Part shown: in pieces, positions 584-63,119 of the stretch
How positions within the stretch are numbered: the stretch's first letter is position 1
How the letters are laid out: the number at the start of each line of letters is the position of its first letter
Assembly: GCA_021809435.1 (NCBI GenBank)
Contig: JAKBAD010000002.1
Location: forward strand, 260,042 to 324,041
Source: Pseudomonadota bacterium
GTDB taxonomy: Bacteria > Pseudomonadota > Alphaproteobacteria > Acetobacterales > Acetobacteraceae
Length of the DNA: 64,000 nt
Direction: 5' to 3'
Program-made: the position numbers and the translations under genes
The notes under the pieces: model-generated
What the model saw: only the letters and a program-made list of their open reading frames with translations
The model's database searches: none
Told to the model about the DNA's origin: nothing

Positions 584-1332
584 GCAAGACGATTCTGGTC
601 ACCGGCGCCTCGGCCGGGTTTGGCGCGGCCTTTGCCCGCCGCTTCGTGAAGGATGGCCACCGCGTCATCGCCGCCGCCCGCCGGCTTGACCGGCTGCAGG
701 CCCTGCACGCCGAGCTGGGCGACGCCCTGCTGCCCGTGGCGCTCGACATCACCGACAAATCCGCCGTCGCCGGCTTCGTGGCCAGCCTGCCCGAAGCCTG
801 GCGCCAGATCGATGTGCTGGTGAACAATGCCGGGCTGGCGCTCGGCCTCTCGCCCGCCTGGGACGCCGATCTCGACCAGTGGGATCAGATGATCAACACC
901 AACATCACCGGGCTCGTCCACCTCACCCGGGCAGTGCTGCCGCAAATGGTCGCGCGCGATGACGGCATCATCCTCAACCTCGGCTCGGTGGCCGGCACCT
1001 ACCCCTATCCGGGCGGCCATACTTACGGCGGCACCAAGGCGTTTGTACGCCAATTCTCGCTCAATCTGCGCGCCGATCTGGTGGGCAAAAACATCCGCGT
1101 CACCGATATCGAGCCCGGCATGGTCGGCGGCTCCGAATTCTCGCTGGTGCGCTTTGGCGGCGATGCGGAAAGAGCCAAGGCGGTCTATGCCGGCATCACC
1201 CCCCTCACCCCCGAAGACATCGCCGAAACCGCCTCCTGGATCGTCAATTTGCCCCGGCACATGAACATCAACCGCATCGAGATGATGCCCACCTGCCAGG
1301 CCACCGGTCCGTTTGCCGTGAAGCGCGGCTAG
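580..1332 (+). CDS. ydfG: NADP-dependent 3-hydroxy acid dehydrogenase, SDR family
   Basis: TGASAGFG, NNAG and YGGTK (YxxxK) motifs; C-terminal HMNINRIEMMP typical of YdfG; ATGA overlap with codA. Confidence 0.88.
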   Translation: MSKTILVTGASAGFGAAFARRFVKDGHRVIAAARRLDRLQALHAELGDALLPVALDITDKSAVAGFVASLPEAWRQIDVLVNNAGLALGLSPAWDADLDQWDQMINTNITGLVHLTRAVLPQMVARDDGIILNLGSVAGTYPYPGGHTYGGTKAFVRQFSLNLRADLVGKNIRVTDIEPGMVGGSEFSLVRFGGDAERAKAVYAGITPLTPEDIAETASWIVNLPRHMNINRIEMMPTCQATGPFAVKRG

Positions 1333-1460
1333 CGTCCCGATTCTGAAATCCACAGGATTTCAAAATCATAGTGGACACCAGGAAAATCAATAAGCTAGCG
1401 TGATTCAGCTTCTGAAATTCGCGATATGGAATATCCCGAATTTCAGCCCCATCACACTAG
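1329..1460 (+). repeat. Single copy of the 128-bp CTAG-bounded two-hairpin element
   Basis: About 17 substitutions versus unit 1 of the 61764-62151 array; first CTAG includes the ydfG TAG stop. Confidence 0.93.
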
Positions 1461-8932: not shown

Positions 8933-9133
8933 AGCCCGATGACATGAGGTGGAATCGCTTGGCGATCCCATCTCACATCTGAATCCGTCTCTATATCAAT
9001 GAATTAGAGTGCGATGGTTTAGCTTTTAGAGCGACATCCAATCAAATGGAATCATTTGATTGGATAAAGTTGCTCGCCCAAACAAAGAGTTAGAGCAGTT
9101 TCCATGAACCTATGTGAATGGAAAATGCTCTAG
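8929..9133. repeat. TAGAGC-bounded three-hairpin intergenic mosaic (CIR/RIME-like)
   Basis: Repeated TAGAG(C)/GCTCTA ends; perfect 13-bp stem ATCCAATCAAATG-GAAT-CATTTGATTGGAT; linkers TATCAATGAAT and AAACAAAGAGT; three GAATC sites. Confidence 0.75.
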
Positions 9134-10041
9134 CGGCCGATTTCGTCCATATCGAACGGCGTGGACTGGTAGATTTCGTTGATCCAGTTGCCGAACAGCA
9201 AATGGCCATGGCCGCGCCAGCAATTTTCGGGCGGCAGGGCGGCATTGTCGTGCGGGTAGTAATTGGCCGGCAGCTTGACCTCCACCCCGGCATTCACATC
9301 GCGCTTATATTCAATATCGAGCGTGTGAGAGTCGTATTCGAGGTGGTTGAAGCAGTGCAGCATGCGGCGCGCCGGATCCTCGATGATGCCGATACCGGTT
9401 TCCGCGCTCGCCGCCAGCACGTTCAGGCTGGCGGGAAGGTCGGTTTGGCGCACTTCGGTCCAGCGTGACACGGGCATGCCGAAATTGTCAGGGAAGCCGC
9501 GCAGCCAGGGGCTGGCGGGCTGGGTGACGCGGTGGGGAATGACCCCGAACGCCTTGGCCGGCAGAATATGCTTCGGCACGCCGTGGAAATGGTTGAGCGC
9601 GGCCTGCGCCGCCCAGCACACCATGAAGCCGCGATGAACGTGGGTTTGGGTCCAGTCGAAGATGCGGCGCAGCTCGTCCCAGTAGGTCACGGCATCGAAG
9701 GGGAGCTTTTCGATGGGCGCGCCGGTGATGATGAAGCCATCGAACCGCTCGTCGCGCACAGCCTCCCACGGGCGGTAGAAGGAGGCCATGTGGTCGGCCT
9801 CGGTGTGGCGCGAGACATGGTTGGTGATGCGCACCAAAGTCAGCTCGACCTGCAGCGGCGTGGCGCCGATGAGGCGGGCGAGCTGGGTTTCGGTGCTGAT
9901 TTTGTCGGGCATGAGGTTGAGCAGCCCGATCCGCAGGGGGCGAATGTCCTGGCGGATGGCGTCGGCCTCGCTCATCACCACCAGCCCCTCGGCCTCGAGG
10001 GTGCGGCGGGCGGGCAAATCGTCAGGTATCTTGATCGGCAT
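9130..10041 (-). CDS. metA: Homoserine O-acyltransferase, MetA family
   Basis: [45 protein letters not shown]. Confidence 0.95.
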
Positions 10042-27050: not shown

Positions 27051-27820
27051 GCGCCACCCCTAAAATCCGCATCCGGGGCCTCAAGAAACGCTTTGGCGCC
27101 AAACAGGTGCTCGATGGCGTGGATCTGGACGTGGCCAAGGGCACGGGCATGGTGGTGATCGGCGGTTCAGGCACGGGCAAATCGGTGCTGATCAAGTCGA
27201 TCTTGGGTCTGGTGACGCCCGATGAGGGGGTGATTGAAATCGACGGCGAGGATGTGCTGCGCGCGCCCAAGCGCCGGGCGCGCGAGCTGCGCGCCCAGAT
27301 CGGCATGCTGTTTCAAAACGGCGCCTTGTTCGATTCGATGAAGGTTTGGGAGAATGTGTGTTTCGGCCTGCTGGCCCAAAACCGCGTGACCCGCCGACAG
27401 GCGCGCGACAAGGCGGTGGAGATTCTGGCCCAGGTGGGGCTGGATGCCAGTGTCGCCGGGCTCTCGCCCTCCGAGCTTTCAGGCGGCATGCAAAAGCGCG
27501 TGGGGCTGGCGCGCGCCATTGCCGCGGAGCCGGCGATCATGTTTTTCGACGAGCCGACCACCGGGCTCGACCCGATCATGGGCGCGGTGATCGATGAGCT
27601 GATCGTCGATTGCGTGAAGCGGCTGGGCAGTACCTCGATCGCCATCACCCATGACATGGCGAGCGCCCAGCGGATCGGCGATGCCGCCGCCATGCTCTAT
27701 CAGGGCAAGGTCTCGTGGACCGGCCCGGCCGCCGAGCTGCTGACCACCACCGACCCGGTGGTGGACCAGTTCACCCATGGCCGCGCCCATGGGCCAATTA
27801 CCATGGCGCTGCGCAAATAG
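27047..27820 (+). CDS. mlaF: MlaF-like ABC ATP-binding protein
   Basis: GGSGTGKS, LFQNGALFDS, LSGGMQKRVGLARA, DEPTTGLDP. Confidence 0.92.
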   Translation: MSATPKIRIRGLKKRFGAKQVLDGVDLDVAKGTGMVVIGGSGTGKSVLIKSILGLVTPDEGVIEIDGEDVLRAPKRRARELRAQIGMLFQNGALFDSMKVWENVCFGLLAQNRVTRRQARDKAVEILAQVGLDASVAGLSPSELSGGMQKRVGLARAIAAEPAIMFFDEPTTGLDPIMGAVIDELIVDCVKRLGSTSIAITHDMASAQRIGDAAAMLYQGKVSWTGPAAELLTTTDPVVDQFTHGRAHGPITMALRK

Positions 27821-27942
27821 GGCCTGACTTGACCCGAGCGCCACAGCGCTTGGCAGGACTCGCGCGCATACCGTAGATTTGGGCGAATCATGCGGTTTTG
27901 CGGGCGGGGGCGGTTGCCTCCGGCGCCTACAGGAGTCCGAGG

Positions 27943-44597: not shown

Positions 44598-45689
44598 TTG
44601 CCCGTGGAGATGTTGCACGAACTGCCGCTTGACCAGATCCTGCTCGGCGATGCCGGGGCGATGCTGCGCCTGCTGCCCGACAGTTTCGCCGACTGCATCT
44701 TCGCCGACCCGCCCTATAACCTCCAGCTGCGCGGCGAGCTTCGCCGCCCCGATGACAGCCTGGTCGATGGCGTCGATGAGGATTGGGACAAATTCAGCGA
44801 TTTCAAAGCCTACGATGAATTCTGCCGCGACTGGCTGGGCGAGTGCCACCGGATTCTCGCCCCCAACGGCACCATCTGGGTCATCGGCTCCTACCACAAC
44901 ATCTTCCGCATCGGCGCCATGATGCAGGATATGGGGTTCTGGATCCTCAACGATGTGGTCTGGCGCAAAACCAACCCGATGCCCAATTTCCGTGGCCGGC
45001 GCTTCACCAACGCCCACGAAACCATGATCTGGGCGGCCAAATCACCCAAATCGCGTTATAAATTCAACTACCAGGCCATGAAGACGCTGAACGACGACGT
45101 ACAGATGCGCTCTGACTGGACCTTGCCGCTCTGCACCGGCAATGAGCGCCTGCGCAACACGCACGGGCTCAAGCTCCACCCCACCCAAAAGCCCGAATCG
45201 CTGCTGCACCGCGTGATCATGGCCGCCACCGGCCCCGGAGACATCGTGGTCGATCCCTTCCTGGGCACCGGCACCACGGCGGCGGTGGCCAAGCGCCTGC
45301 ACCGCCATTTCATCGGCATCGAGCGTCACCCCGCCTATGTCGAAGCCGCCTGGGGCCGTCTGGCCGCCGAGGCGCCCGCCCCCAAATCCGCCGTCATCGC
45401 CCCGCCTACAGGGCGCGATGCCCCGCGCGTGGCCTTTGGCAGCTTCGTCGAGCGCGGCATCCTCAAACCCGGCACCACGCTCATGGATAAGCAGCGCCGC
45501 TTCGGCGCCGAAATCACCGCCGAGGGCGGTCTGGTCTCGGGCCCGCATCGCGGCTCCATCCACCAGGTCGGCGCGGCCGTGCAAAACGCCCCCAGCTGCA
45601 ATGGCTGGACCTTCTGGCACTTCGAGCGCGACGGCCAGCTCCTGCCCATCGATGTGCTGCGCAAGGAAAATTCCGGCGAGCCGGCCTAA
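44598..45689 (+). CDS. ccrM: Cell-cycle-regulated adenine methyltransferase
   Basis: [60 protein letters not shown]. Confidence 0.94.
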
Positions 45690-52977: not shown

Positions 52978-53892
52978 CTACCGCCCGGTCCATTTCGCCT
53001 CATAAACCTTGGCGCCGGGCGGCGGCACAAAGGCCCGGTCGGCCTTTTCCTCGGCATGGCGCAGCGCGTTCAGGCTCACCAGCAGCGCCGCCGTGTTCAG
53101 CGCCCCCGCCGGAATCCACTGAATAATGCCGCCCAGCAACTGGTCATATTGCGCGCTCATGAGCGGAAATAACCGCCCGCACACCGCATAAACCGTGTAG
53201 AGATCGCGCGAGGTGAGCGCGATATAGGCGCTCACCGGCATCTGCGGAAACATCACCAAAAACCCGGTCGCCCCCCGCACGATAAATGAAAAACGGCAAG
53301 GCGGGTTGGGCCGGTCGTCGAGCACCATCAGCCAAAACAGCAGCCCGGCATAGAAACAAGACACCAGCATCAAATCATAAAGCCACGGGTTGAGCATGGC
53401 ATCGAACTGCACGGTGGGAATCAGCCATACATCAGTGGCTCCCAGCATCAGCAGCGCCGCGGGCACCGGCCTTGCCAGCCCCGCCACCACCGGCGCCACC
53501 GCCCCGGCCGCGCGCCTGGCCCAGTCCGGCGCGCCCGCCTCCAGCACCGGCCCCAACCGGCCAAAACTCAGCAAAAAGGGCCCCGCCATGCCGCTCACCA
53601 GCGCCTGGGCCCGGTCCAGCGCGAATAAATGCTCGGCCCAATACTCAAAATGTGTCTGGAGCACGAAATAAATGGCCGCCCAGCCCAACAGTGCGCTGGC
53701 CACCCGCGCCCAATGCGGGCGCTCGGCCAGCCGCGCCAGCCCGCGCCCATACCACACCAGCCCCGCCCAAAGCGGACAGAACAACAGCGGATCAAACACA
53801 TAAGGCCCCAAAAACGGCACATGCGCGGGCCACAGCGCGCACACACCCCACACCAGCGCGCTGACCACCAGCAGCGCCAGCGTATCAGCCAT
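52978..53892 (-). CDS. Cytochrome c oxidase assembly factor, Caa3_CtaG-like membrane protein
   Basis: Multi-TM; YDQLLGGIIQW; resemblance only. Confidence 0.65.
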   Translation of the reverse strand: MADTLALLVVSALVWGVCALWPAHVPFLGPYVFDPLLFCPLWAGLVWYGRGLARLAERPHWARVASALLGWAAIYFVLQTHFEYWAEHLFALDRAQALVSGMAGPFLLSFGRLGPVLEAGAPDWARRAAGAVAPVVAGLARPVPAALLMLGATDVWLIPTVQFDAMLNPWLYDLMLVSCFYAGLLFWLMVLDDRPNPPCRFSFIVRGATGFLVMFPQMPVSAYIALTSRDLYTVYAVCGRLFPLMSAQYDQLLGGIIQWIPAGALNTAALLVSLNALRHAEEKADRAFVPPPGAKVYEAKWTGR

Positions 53893-54376
53893 GCAGCCGC
53901 TCCAGCGGCACGCCGGGCAGGTCGCGGCTGGTGCGAATGGTCTGCAACGTCTGCACCCGCGCCACCAGCGGGGCGTTGGTCAGCCGGGTGGTCAGCTGGT
54001 TCTCATGCCCCGGATCGCGCGCCACGAGCTTAAGCAAAAAATCGCCACCGCCGCGGATCATGTGGCACTCGCGCACCTCGGGCCAGCCGTCCACCAGCGC
54101 CTCAAACTGCTCCAGCACCGCCTGTTTCTGGCTTTCCAGTCCAACAATGACAAAAAACACAATCTGCCAGCCCAGCCGCGGGCCATTGGCCTCGGCATGA
54201 TAGCCCAGAATATACCCCGCCTCCTCCAGCCGGCGCACCCGGCGCAGGCAGGGCGGCGGCGAAATGCCCACCCGCTTGGCCAGTTCCACATTGGTCATCC
54301 GCCCGTCCGCCTGCAACTCGGCCAGAATTTTGCGGTCGATCTCATCGAGACTCAGCGGGTCGTATTCGTTTGCCAT
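53885..54376 (-). CDS. Lrp/AsnC family regulator
   Basis: LDEIDRKIL, ELAKRVGISPPPCLRRVRRLE; start refined to 54376. Confidence 0.9.
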   Translation of the reverse strand: MANEYDPLSLDEIDRKILAELQADGRMTNVELAKRVGISPPPCLRRVRRLEEAGYILGYHAEANGPRLGWQIVFFVIVGLESQKQAVLEQFEALVDGWPEVRECHMIRGGGDFLLKLVARDPGHENQLTTRLTNAPLVARVQTLQTIRTSRDLPGVPLERLHG

Positions 54377-54428
54377 AGGGTCCAAAAGCTCATCATGACG
54401 CGCAATATCATTGCGCGACAACTCTTGG

Positions 54429-54590
54429 CTAGTGTGATGGTTCAGAAATTCGCGATATTCCATATCGCGCATTTGTGAAGCTGAATCACACTAGCTTATT
54501 GATTTTCCTAGTGCCCCGATCCTGAAATCCAACAGATTTCAGGATCGGGGCACTAGTGTGATGGTTCAGAAATTCGCGACACCCCATATC
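54429..54590 (-). repeat. Inverted copy of the CTAG two-hairpin element (124 bp) plus a truncated second unit
   Basis: CTAG at 54429, 54491, 54508 and 54553; reverse complement matches the units at 1329 and 61764. Confidence 0.92.

Positions 54591-60540: not shown

Positions 60541-60544
<4 letters not shown>
59351..60544 (-). CDS. CaiB/BaiF CoA-transferase (probable succinyl-CoA:glutarate type)
   Basis: [36 protein letters not shown]; follows gcdH. Confidence 0.88.
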
Positions 60545-61722
<1,178 letters not shown>

Positions 61723-61763: not shown

Positions 61764-62151
61764 CTAGTGTCCCGATCCTGAAATCCCTTGGATTTCAGGA
61801 TCATAGTGGACACTAGGAAAATCAATACCCTAGTGTGATTCAGCTTCGGAAATTCGCGATATGGAATATCGCGAATCTCCGAACCATCACACTAGTGTCC
61901 CGATCCTGAAATCCCTTGGATTTCAGGACCATAGTGGACACTAGGAAAATCAATACCCTAGTGTAACTCAGCTTCGGAAATTCGCGATATGGAATATCGC
62001 GAATCTCCGAACCATCACACTAGTGTCCCGATCCTGAAATCCCTTGGATTTCAGGACCATAGTGGACACTAGGAAAATCAATAACCTAGTGTGACTCAGC
62101 TTCGGAAATTCGCGATATGGAATATCGCGAATTTCCGAACCATCGCACTAG
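61764..62151 (+). repeat. Tandem array of three 128-bp CTAG-bounded two-hairpin units
   Basis: Unit boundaries at CTAG 61764, 61892, 62020 and 62148; units differ by 3-5 substitutions. Confidence 0.97.
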
Positions 62152-62216
62152 CGACATCTTTCATTCAAGAGAATTAAAACTCGATTTTAATGCATATTTC
62201 GTATTAAACTCCGCCC

Positions 62217-63119
62217 ATGGAGCTTGCGCATTTAAGAGTGTTCGAAACCCTGGCCGATGAGCTGCATTTCGCCCGCGCGGCCGACCGGCTGGGCCTCACC
62301 CAGCCCGCCGTCTCGCGCCAGATCGCGGCGCTCGAAGCCAGCCTCGGCGGTAAATTATTCGACCGCGCCAAGCGCTCCCAGGTCACCCTCACCGCCACCG
62401 GCGCGCTGTTCCTGCCCGAGGCCCGGGCCATTTTACGCCAGGCCGAGCGGGGCGAAGCCCTGGCCAGACGCGCCGCCCGCGGCGAGGTCGGGCGGCTCGA
62501 AATCGGCTATGTCGCCTCCGCCGCCTGGGGCGGCGTGGCGGCCGCGCTGGTGCGGCGCTTTCTCACCCGCGCGCCCAAGGTCGAGGTGCATTTGCAGGAA
62601 CTCGAAACCCCCCGCCAGATCGAAGAGCTGGCCGCGGGGCGGCTCGATCTCGGCATTTTCCGCACCCGGCCCGCCTACCCCACCGAGCTGAAAGTCCAGC
62701 CCCTGCTGCAAGACACGCTGCAAATCGCCCTGCCCGACTCCGACCCGCGTGCCGCCCAGCCCGTCCTCCACGCCGCCGATCTGGCCGACGCCCGCTTCAT
62801 CCTGCCCCATTTCGGCGAGGAGGCCGGGTTCCTCGCGCGCATCCAGGCGCTCGGCCAAGCCGGCGGTTTCCCCCCCGAAATCCAGCCCCCGGTGCGCGAC
62901 TTTCTCACCGTGCTCACCTCGGTCTCGGCCGGGCTGGGCGTGGGGCTGGTGCCTGAAAGTGCCGGTGCCCTGCATCTCCAAGGGGTGGTGCTGCGGCGGG
63001 TGGCCGATGTGGCGCTCAATTCCGGCCTGGTGCTTGGCGCCCGGCGGGCCGATTCGTCTCCCCTGGTACGGCGGTTTTTGCAAATGGCCCAGGAGCGGCC
63101 TAAGAGCGGCCATGGCTGA
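62217..63119 (+). CDS. LysR family regulator divergent from gcdH
   Basis: LHFARAADRLGLTQPAVSRQIAALE. Confidence 0.92.
   Translation: MELAHLRVFETLADELHFARAADRLGLTQPAVSRQIAALEASLGGKLFDRAKRSQVTLTATGALFLPEARAILRQAERGEALARRAARGEVGRLEIGYVASAAWGGVAAALVRRFLTRAPKVEVHLQELETPRQIEELAAGRLDLGIFRTRPAYPTELKVQPLLQDTLQIALPDSDPRAAQPVLHAADLADARFILPHFGEEAGFLARIQALGQAGGFPPEIQPPVRDFLTVLTSVSAGLGVGLVPESAGALHLQGVVLRRVADVALNSGLVLGARRADSSPLVRRFLQMAQERPKSGHG

Follow-up and report, generated by a model that had tools for sequence, protein, structure and literature searches.

A previously undescribed CTAG-bounded palindromic repeat forms a three-unit array, variable in unit number between strains, in the gcdH/LysR control region of an uncultured member of the Acetobacteraceae

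Introduction

What is a tandem array of long palindromes doing between gcdH and a divergent LysR-type regulator gene, how did its units multiply there, and how did related copies come to lie beside other genes of the same genome? In the 64-kb stretch of DNA that we analysed (hereafter the window), this array occupies 388 bp, at positions 61764-62151 of the plus strand. An original prediction, made from the letters of the sequence, read it as three exact 128-bp units of two alternating, CTAG-delimited hairpins, and proposed a self-amplifying, non-autonomous element mobilised in trans by a CTAG-targeting transposase or an HUH/RAYT-type nuclease. Here, we dissect the array and its hairpins, follow the dispersed copies and their CTAG boundaries, compare near-identical strains at the same loci, and weigh the explanations that can be offered for the origin and spread of the repeat.

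Results

Structure of the array

TRF applied to the window detected at 61764-62151 a repeat of period 128 with 3.0 copies, 97% matches, no indels and a score of 734, the next-best array of the window scoring 83. Comparison of the units gave the same picture. Indeed, U1 (61764-61891), U2 (61892-62019) and U3 (62020-62147) differ from one another at 3-5 positions, with 96-98% identity among themselves and ~85% identity to the units at other loci, and they are followed by a closing CTAG. Each unit consists of a 53-bp hairpin (A), a 13-bp linker and a 66-bp hairpin (B), with CTAG at every module boundary; neighbouring units have one CTAG in common, and the fourth of these shared CTAG ends the array. 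Both the exact threefold 128-bp periodicity and the A-linker-B layout with shared CTAG that had been predicted are thus borne out by TRF and by dissection of the sequence. The longest open reading frame in the array spans 37 aa, and a six-frame conceptual translation of the array, also aimed at further copies hidden in mis-called ORFs, had no match in the protein database at E <= 1.

Hairpin A, on the plus strand at 61764-61816 in U1, 61892-61944 in U2 and 62020-62072 in U3, combines an outer stem of 9 bp and an inner stem of 13 bp with an asymmetric bulge (CTAGTGTCC-C-GATCCTGAAATCC / CTT / GGATTTCAGGATC-ATAGT-GGACACTAG). Hairpin B, on the same strand at 61830-61895, 61958-62023 and 62086-62151, has a 10-bp outer stem with the foot CTAGTGTGAT, an internal loop, and an 18-bp inner stem (TTCGGAAATTCGCGATAT / GGA / complement) whose core reads TTCGCGATAT-GGA-ATATCGCGAA. 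Folded as DNA, hairpin A of U1 reaches -19 kcal/mol (z = -9.1) and hairpin B of U1 -23.5 kcal/mol (z = -8.0); the hairpins taken together range from -13 to -27 kcal/mol, with z-scores of -5 to -13 against shuffled controls. As RNA, the whole gcdH/LysR spacer folds at -244 kcal/mol (z = -16.8).

The 13-bp linker GAAAATCAATACC that joins A to B (plus strand; 61817-61829, 61945-61957 and 62073-62085) is kept at all three loci where the repeat occurs in the window. The form first given for it, GAAAATCAATA(C/A)C, is right for the array but wrong as the form of the family. Indeed, the majority linker of the family in unitigs is GAAAATCAATAAG, most copies there having AAG in place of the ACC or AAC that are private to the array. 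In the linker, we found the WATCAA part of an IHF site but not the full consensus WATCAANNNNTTR.

Standard pairs make up 93.5% of the 245 stem cells of the five full units. Three stem pairs are changed on both sides, and one of them has three Watson-Crick types; at pair 85/117, the array has G-C, locus 1 and most family members have T-A, and locus 2 has A-T. Such compensatory changes suggest that the palindromes have been maintained and not merely inherited, with the modest weight that three independent loci can give.

The proposed homology of A and B also held when their arms were aligned beyond the common 7-nt feet. None of 5000 shuffles equalled the alignment of the right arms (GGATTTCAGGATCAT and GAATTTCAGAACCAT), and 14 of 5000 aligned as well as the left arms. 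The arms of the modules are 22-30-bp inverted repeats that begin CTAG-TGT, continuing as TGTG or TGTC. In effect, A consists of arms with almost no interior, and B adds a further palindrome (GCGATAT-GGA-ATATCGC) inside arms that resemble those of A. Each module thus resembles a pair of terminal inverted repeats of 22-30 bp with a near-empty interior, which is the minimal form of a MITE.

The element contains 43-45% G+C against 65.5% for its host. GANTC, the CcrM site, has a density of ~8-15 per kb in the repeats against 1.45 per kb in the window; one such site, at column 74 near the foot of B, is present in four of the five units, and the other GANTC sites are not conserved. We also noted in the window a gene for a CcrM-like DNA methyltransferase with N6_N4_Mtase and RAMA domains (44598-45689, plus strand), which lies beside the atp operon.

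A dispersed family bounded by CTAG

Two further loci of the window carry the repeat. Locus 1 (1329-1460, plus strand) is a single A-linker-B unit, ~85% identical to the array units and itself the same in seven out of seven strain contigs. The short-chain dehydrogenase gene upstream (580-1332) has its TAG stop codon within the first CTAG of this unit, the outcome that insertion into a pre-existing CTAG would give, and the next gene begins at 1514. Locus 2 (54429-54556, minus strand) is also a single unit, with B at 54429-54494, the linker at 54495-54507 and A, here a perfect 22-bp stem, at 54508-54556; a partial B restricted to its right half (54553-54590, minus strand) abuts it. The window therefore holds, as predicted, three loci in both orientations with 1, about 1.3 and 3 units. 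Both copies situated between co-directional genes share the polarity of those genes, an agreement that means little with n = 2.

Right after the locus-1 unit, within 1461-1516, there is a perfect 14-bp inverted repeat (CCTCTCGTTAAGGT-TTAAAAAC-ACCTTAACGAGAGG) that is not a member of the family. It ends 4 nt before the ATG of a Mg-chelatase/ComM-like gene, so that its right arm contains the likely ribosome-binding site (GAGAGG), and it could be a translational control hairpin.

Metagenome unitigs show how widely the family is dispersed. Word depth in Logan unitigs is ~25x in the flanks, 300-440x in hairpin A and ~1200-1350x in the B core, and repeat depth amounts to 12-50x flank depth. Per genome equivalent, we estimate about ten to a few tens of copies, with B-like sequences ~4x as common as A-like ones; these figures are rough, as they come from metagenome unitig depth, which may mix strains. 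Run X1 contains 6+1 unitigs whose differing left flanks stop at 61764/61765, where A has its first CTAG, and 5+4 whose differing right flanks begin at 62151/62152, after the last CTAG of B. As lower bounds, this gives at least 7 left and at least 9 right flanks. Altogether, the three loci, the raised depth and the differing flanks agree with the claim of a dispersed, non-coding family of CTAG-delimited palindromes.

Partial forms are also present in the unitigs: solo A followed by unrelated DNA, linker and B without A and starting at a CTAG, and A with 8 nt of linker. The linker is kept in A-only and B-only fragments, which is easier to reconcile with decay of one composite unit than with A and B having moved independently. 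Among the dispersed units, the A-linker-B composite is the most frequent.

CTAG occurs 22 times in the 64 kb, where ~200 sites are predicted from base composition, and 17 of these 22 lie within the three loci. The tetranucleotide is thus indeed scarce in the rest of the window. The five sites in the 63 kb outside the repeats are at 9130, 24708, 26763, 28075 and 38161, the one at 9130 being at the end of a minus-strand ORF (9130-10041). CTAG stands at both ends of every copy and the different flanks break exactly there, which is compatible with a duplication of CTAG or of TA.

Unit number differs between near-identical strains

Three alleles of the gcdH/LysR spacer were identified: 238 bp with one unit (1 contig), 366 bp with two units (12 contigs) and 494 bp with three units (the window). 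The contigs that bear them are 99.6-99.95% identical to the window. Both the recent expansion and the strain polymorphism that had been anticipated are apparent in these near-identical contigs with 1, 2 or 3 units.

We considered whether some of these alleles might be products of assembly. The three-unit array could be an artefact of a one- or two-unit locus, and all other assembled contigs retrieved do have 2 units (12) or 1 unit (1), never 3. However, U2-specific words were found at single-copy depth in independent Logan unitigs of runs X1 and X2. Indeed, the private variant of this middle unit, GTGTAAC, is present in both runs, and record 14 of X2 covers 61892-62004 with zero mismatches. 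The B-to-A junction was also recovered in unitigs, as a joint stepping back 128, and the junction words of the 1- and 2-unit alleles are absent from the 3-unit sequence. We therefore hold an artefact to be extremely improbable, and confirm that the array is a real, well-defined feature. A collapse of the three-unit locus as the source of the shorter alleles was ruled out as well. The 1- and 2-unit alleles hold those junction words of their own, which makes them distinct alleles, and U2-specific words (GTGTAAC) are absent from runs X3 and X4, though the locus is covered there.

The units of the array have private variants that are absent from the rest of the family, namely ACC or AAC against AAG in the linker and G-C against T-A at pair 85/117. 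As these variants are common to U1, U2 and U3, the array is a local tandem duplication of one founder unit. Serial self-insertion is thereby ruled out as its origin, and the description of the element as self-amplifying by repeated insertion does not hold for the array.

In contig L003, 124 bp are missing from locus 2 exactly between two 27-bp direct repeats of the right half of B, and the partial B is all that remains. We examined this allele as a true empty site and rejected it, since it is a deletion between the 27-bp direct repeats; it is the same process as the change in the array, acting toward loss. Near-identical strains thus show that recombination or slippage between direct repeats alters copy number. 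No new insertion site was found in the strain contigs over ~80 kb, a comparison with little power at 6-10 contigs per region and ~99.9% identity. Of the two kinds of strain difference that had been suggested as checks, differences in unit number were thus observed, and a precise empty site within the species was not seen in these contigs.

Other differences between strains were noted. A 98%-identical strain (L098, JGI metagenome 3300039287) has an extra AT-rich segment of ~427 bp (L098 11557-12105; window ~27820-27900) between an ABC-transporter ATPase gene and a LigB-family gene, which is absent from the window and from the other contigs. This insert was rejected as a copy of the hairpin element; its sequence is unrelated and its 82-aa ORF has no Pfam match. 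In the 64-kb contig k141_477609 of ERZ27237140, the neighbours differ at both edges of the common region (L095 1-3600 and L104 1-4200). Upstream of the amidohydrolase gene, there are a different dehydrogenase gene and PNP-oxidase genes, and a Suv3-type helicase replaces the Caa3_CtaG/AsnC segment that carries locus 2 in the window. This contig is in part only ~95% identical to the window, and is either chimeric or derived from a strain that has undergone rearrangement or recombination.

The gcdH/LysR control region

The gcdH gene (60541-61722, minus strand) encodes a glutaryl-CoA dehydrogenase-like protein (Pfam Acyl-CoA_dh N/M/1; ~72% identity to annotated gcdH) and is followed by a family-III CoA-transferase gene. 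The divergent regulator gene (62217-63119, plus strand) encodes a GcdR-like protein of the LysR type (Pfam HTH_1 and LysR_substrate). We take this layout of gcdH, CoA-transferase and LysR genes to be the gcdR/gcdHG arrangement of Pseudomonas. The start codon of the regulator gene lies 65 bp from the array. Between the two, an AT-rich segment, TTTAAT...CAT.AAA...TTTTAAT (62152-62216), is conserved in relatives without the element (L011 and L012) and is presumed to be the binding region of the LysR-type regulator. The array begins 27 bp past the end of this box and stops 41 bp short of the gcdH start codon.

In the two closest relatives, the LysR-gcdH arrangement is the same and the spacer measures 102 and 140 bp without the element, against 110 bp here once the array is subtracted. 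This agrees with the claim that the array adds 384 bp to the control region and, judged from this comparison, the element at gcdH is an insertion. The empty spacer of the relatives has no CTAG at an alignable position and cannot be aligned base for base with that of the window. The array would then either split the old gcdH promoter or sit in the gcdH leader. A consensus scan of both strands of the spacer for promoters and terminators returned no sigma-70-like and no intrinsic-terminator-like site. Neither the locus nor any copy is represented among the contigs of three metatranscriptome runs of the same study, which are uninformative on expression.

Host and distribution

The gcdH product is at most 87% identical to its matches among 185,579 species representatives, the best of them coming from an Acidocella sp. 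MAG, followed by other Acetobacteraceae. The host is thus an uncultured member of the Acetobacteraceae near Acidocella. The sequence was found in mine-drainage metagenomes, weakly in one hot-spring metagenome, and in several third-party MAGs.

Searches elsewhere gave no related sequence. A 21-mer from the B core had no match in the 185,579 species-representative genomes, those of Caulobacter and Rhizobium included; in JGI metagenome contigs it had 3 chance matches only, in low-GC DNA, and in IMG/VR 2 chance matches only. The array had no blastn match in the plasmid collection. A five-unit nhmmer profile recovered its seed matches only in 548 kb of relatives' loci, a scan of the relatives for CTAG-bounded palindromes found none, and the diagnostic strings of the element were absent from the full-text literature searched. 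In Rfam, there were no matches at gathering thresholds, the sub-threshold ones being generic miRNA-precursor hairpins only (<= 34 bits against thresholds of 70-140). In line with what had been expected, no described family was therefore matched in any of these collections, and the repeat family appears, as far as they show, to be confined to the host lineage.

Pfam annotation of essentially the whole window and of ~17 kb beyond it (~80 kb in all) revealed ordinary genes of housekeeping and metabolism; no gene for a transposase, an integrase or a RAYT was among them. The stated absence of a transposase thus extends past the limits of the window.

Discussion

In this study, we describe a small intergenic repeat whose array at gcdH can be explained in two parts, local duplication and dispersal. 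We propose that the array represents three locally duplicated copies of a lineage-specific, non-autonomous, MITE-like mosaic repeat that was spread in the past by a trans-acting, CTAG-targeting transposase. We regard this reading as the probable one, with somewhat better than an even chance of being right. Indeed, the element resembles MITEs by its terminal inverted repeats, its size (128-132 bp), its lack of coding capacity and its dispersed copies with unrelated flanks, whereas insertion polymorphism did not appear in the ~80 kb compared, where 6-10 contigs per region at ~99.9% identity give low power.

Dispersal was probably brought about by a transposase supplied in trans and inserting at CTAG. 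Such an insertion would duplicate either CTAG or its central TA, and would account for the CTAG found at all copy ends in a genome nearly devoid of this tetranucleotide. Insertion sequences with this taste are known. IS5 duplicates YTAR, mostly CTAG (PMC5493358), the target of IS630 is given as the TA within CTAG (Tenzen and Ohtsubo 1991, as listed in PMC2170065), and in the IS481 family the ends begin TGTG and NCTAGN is duplicated (PMC2516522). The repeat is similar to these elements in having CTAG on both sides of its copies, and its arms begin TGT after CTAG as do the IS481-family ends. It differs from them in that no associated transposase gene is present in the ~80 kb, and the 6-bp NCTAGN duplication of IS481 does not fit, since one flank reads CCTAGT and the other ACTAGC.

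After a unit has become established, its local copy number changes through recombination or replication slippage at direct repeats, and the outcome in strains ~99.9% identical is 1, 2 or 3 units at gcdH and the 124-bp loss at locus 2. Since the loci differ by ~15% against ~0.1% between strain contigs, the spread appears to be old; transposition may have ceased, and recombination may be the only process still current. The effect on the host is probably incidental. The array comes between the gcdH start codon and the conserved box of the LysR-type regulator, and it may add up to six stable hairpins to the gcdH leader or displace the promoter.

Selection by the host is one point on which one could disagree with this MITE-like reading. 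The repeat could be a cis element, made of protein-binding sites, attenuators, insulators or determinants of mRNA stability, whose unit number tunes expression of gcdH or of the LysR gene in a contingency-like manner. The position of the array (~27 bp past the regulator box and 41 bp short of the gcdH start codon), the very stable structures, and the different unit numbers of near-identical strains are all consistent with such a role, as are the GANTC at column 74 in 4/5 units together with a CcrM-like methylase encoded in the window, and the polarity that both co-directional copies share with their flanking genes. However, close relatives keep the gcdH/LysR pair without the repeat, copies adjoin functionally unrelated genes, and truncated and decaying copies are present; moreover, the spacer scan scored no intrinsic-terminator or sigma-70-like site, and the array locus does not appear among the metatranscriptome contigs. 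We consider a host-selected element unlikely. A different idea keeps the CTAG-targeting transposase and turns the element into its own landing pad. Each module regenerates CTAG on both sides, so that in a CTAG-purged genome most sites open to such a transposase would be the ends of copies already in place. Insertion into these ends would build the A-linker-B mosaics, recombination would then amplify them, and unit number could switch expression. If so, tetranucleotide avoidance and repeat architecture would be tied by a self-reinforcing link, and unit number at promoters such as that of gcdH could be a fast-switching expression dial. This idea is speculative and we give it little credence.

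Two other routes of spread would involve HUH-type or single-strand mechanisms. In a REP/BIME-type scheme, REP-like palindromes or doublets are spread by a RAYT (an HUH Y1 transposase) encoded elsewhere, and the array is a BIME-like cluster. In its favour, two palindrome types form a mosaic with a conserved short linker, both clustered and single intergenic copies occur, compensatory changes keep the palindromes paired, and clusters of tandemly reiterated REP dimers are documented (PMC3733652). Likewise, the BIME of E. coli and the modular BOX elements of Streptococcus pneumoniae combine two types of palindrome, joined by short conserved linkers, in mosaics with variable module number and tandem clusters (PMC3733652, PMC3184786). 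But a REP measures 20-40 bp and bears at one end a GTAG or CGTC tag (PMC3733652), and the repeat departs from this definition in both size and tag, its modules being 53 and 66 bp long, bounded by CTAG on either side and lacking a conserved GTAG or CGTC tag. Where REPs alternate in BIME, the CTAG-bounded modules here are all in direct orientation. The full IHF consensus does not occur in the linker, and no RAYT gene is present in the ~80 kb. We consider a REP/BIME-type origin unlikely. A minimal, palindrome-associated derivative of IS200/IS605 is, in our view, very unlikely. Here A and B would be the left- and right-end subterminal hairpins of an element that moves as single-stranded DNA and inserts 3' of CTAG; its terminal CTAG would allow a further copy to insert immediately after it. 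Such a derivative would give two different imperfect end hairpins with a fixed polarity (B following A at all loci) and sharp CTAG ends with a CTAG 5' of every copy and no duplication beyond it, and it would suit the left CTAG of locus 1, which is the neighbouring gene's own stop codon. However, known IS200/IS605 end hairpins are much shorter and less perfect than A and B. The model does not predict homology between the two hairpins or a CTAG on either side of each, the private variants common to the array units indicate duplication and not serial insertion, and neither a TnpA nor a TnpB gene was seen in the ~80 kb.

Returning to the MITE-like reading, the closest parallels are the palindromic MITEs ERIC (~127 bp), Correia (104-157 bp), RUP and Nezha (PMC3184786, PMC10969869). 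As in these families, the copies are ~130 bp long, non-coding and intergenic, with terminal inverted repeats folding into long hairpins, a TA-containing motif at both ends, tens of copies and no transposase inside; members of these families also often adjoin genes or are co-transcribed with them. The repeat differs from them by the absence of sequence similarity and by its unit, which is made of two homologous palindromes and a linker and not of a single inverted-repeat pair. In addition, CTAG delimits every module, and neither a parent IS nor insertion polymorphism was seen in the ~80 kb. The repeat also invites comparison with another kind of alphaproteobacterial element. CIR (CcrM-associated intergenic repeats) are long intergenic palindromic repeats of alphaproteobacteria with a conserved GANTC. 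GANTC is likewise kept in most units here and the host encodes a CcrM-like methylase; unlike in CIR, the site is placed close to the foot of B and one unit has lost it, CIR being compared here by description.

On this evidence, we regard the element as a previously undescribed, lineage-specific member of a familiar class of small, selfish intergenic repeats, and it gives no pointer to a new kind of mechanism. It adds a well-delimited family from an uncultured, acidophilic member of the Acetobacteraceae to the bacterial catalogue of MITE- and BIME-like repeats. What sets it apart is the CTAG at every joint in a CTAG-avoiding genome, and a fast-changing unit number inside the spacer between a regulator and its target. 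Its two homologous palindromes, fixed linker and CTAG joints are a hint to the class of the originating transposase.

Near-identical, co-occurring strains with 1-3 units between the regulator box and its target also constitute a natural experiment on a divergent promoter, and the gcdH locus, as a variable-number tandem repeat, is a ready strain marker for this population. Finally, the repeat trips short-read assemblies and gene callers. At locus 2, the start codon of the AsnC-type regulator gene is called inside hairpin B, which gives a product of 192 aa (L001 17260-17838; window ~53885-54472, minus strand); in the allele without the 124 bp, the same gene is called with 163 aa (L003 17223-17714). 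The repeat thus creates a spurious N-terminal extension in annotations.
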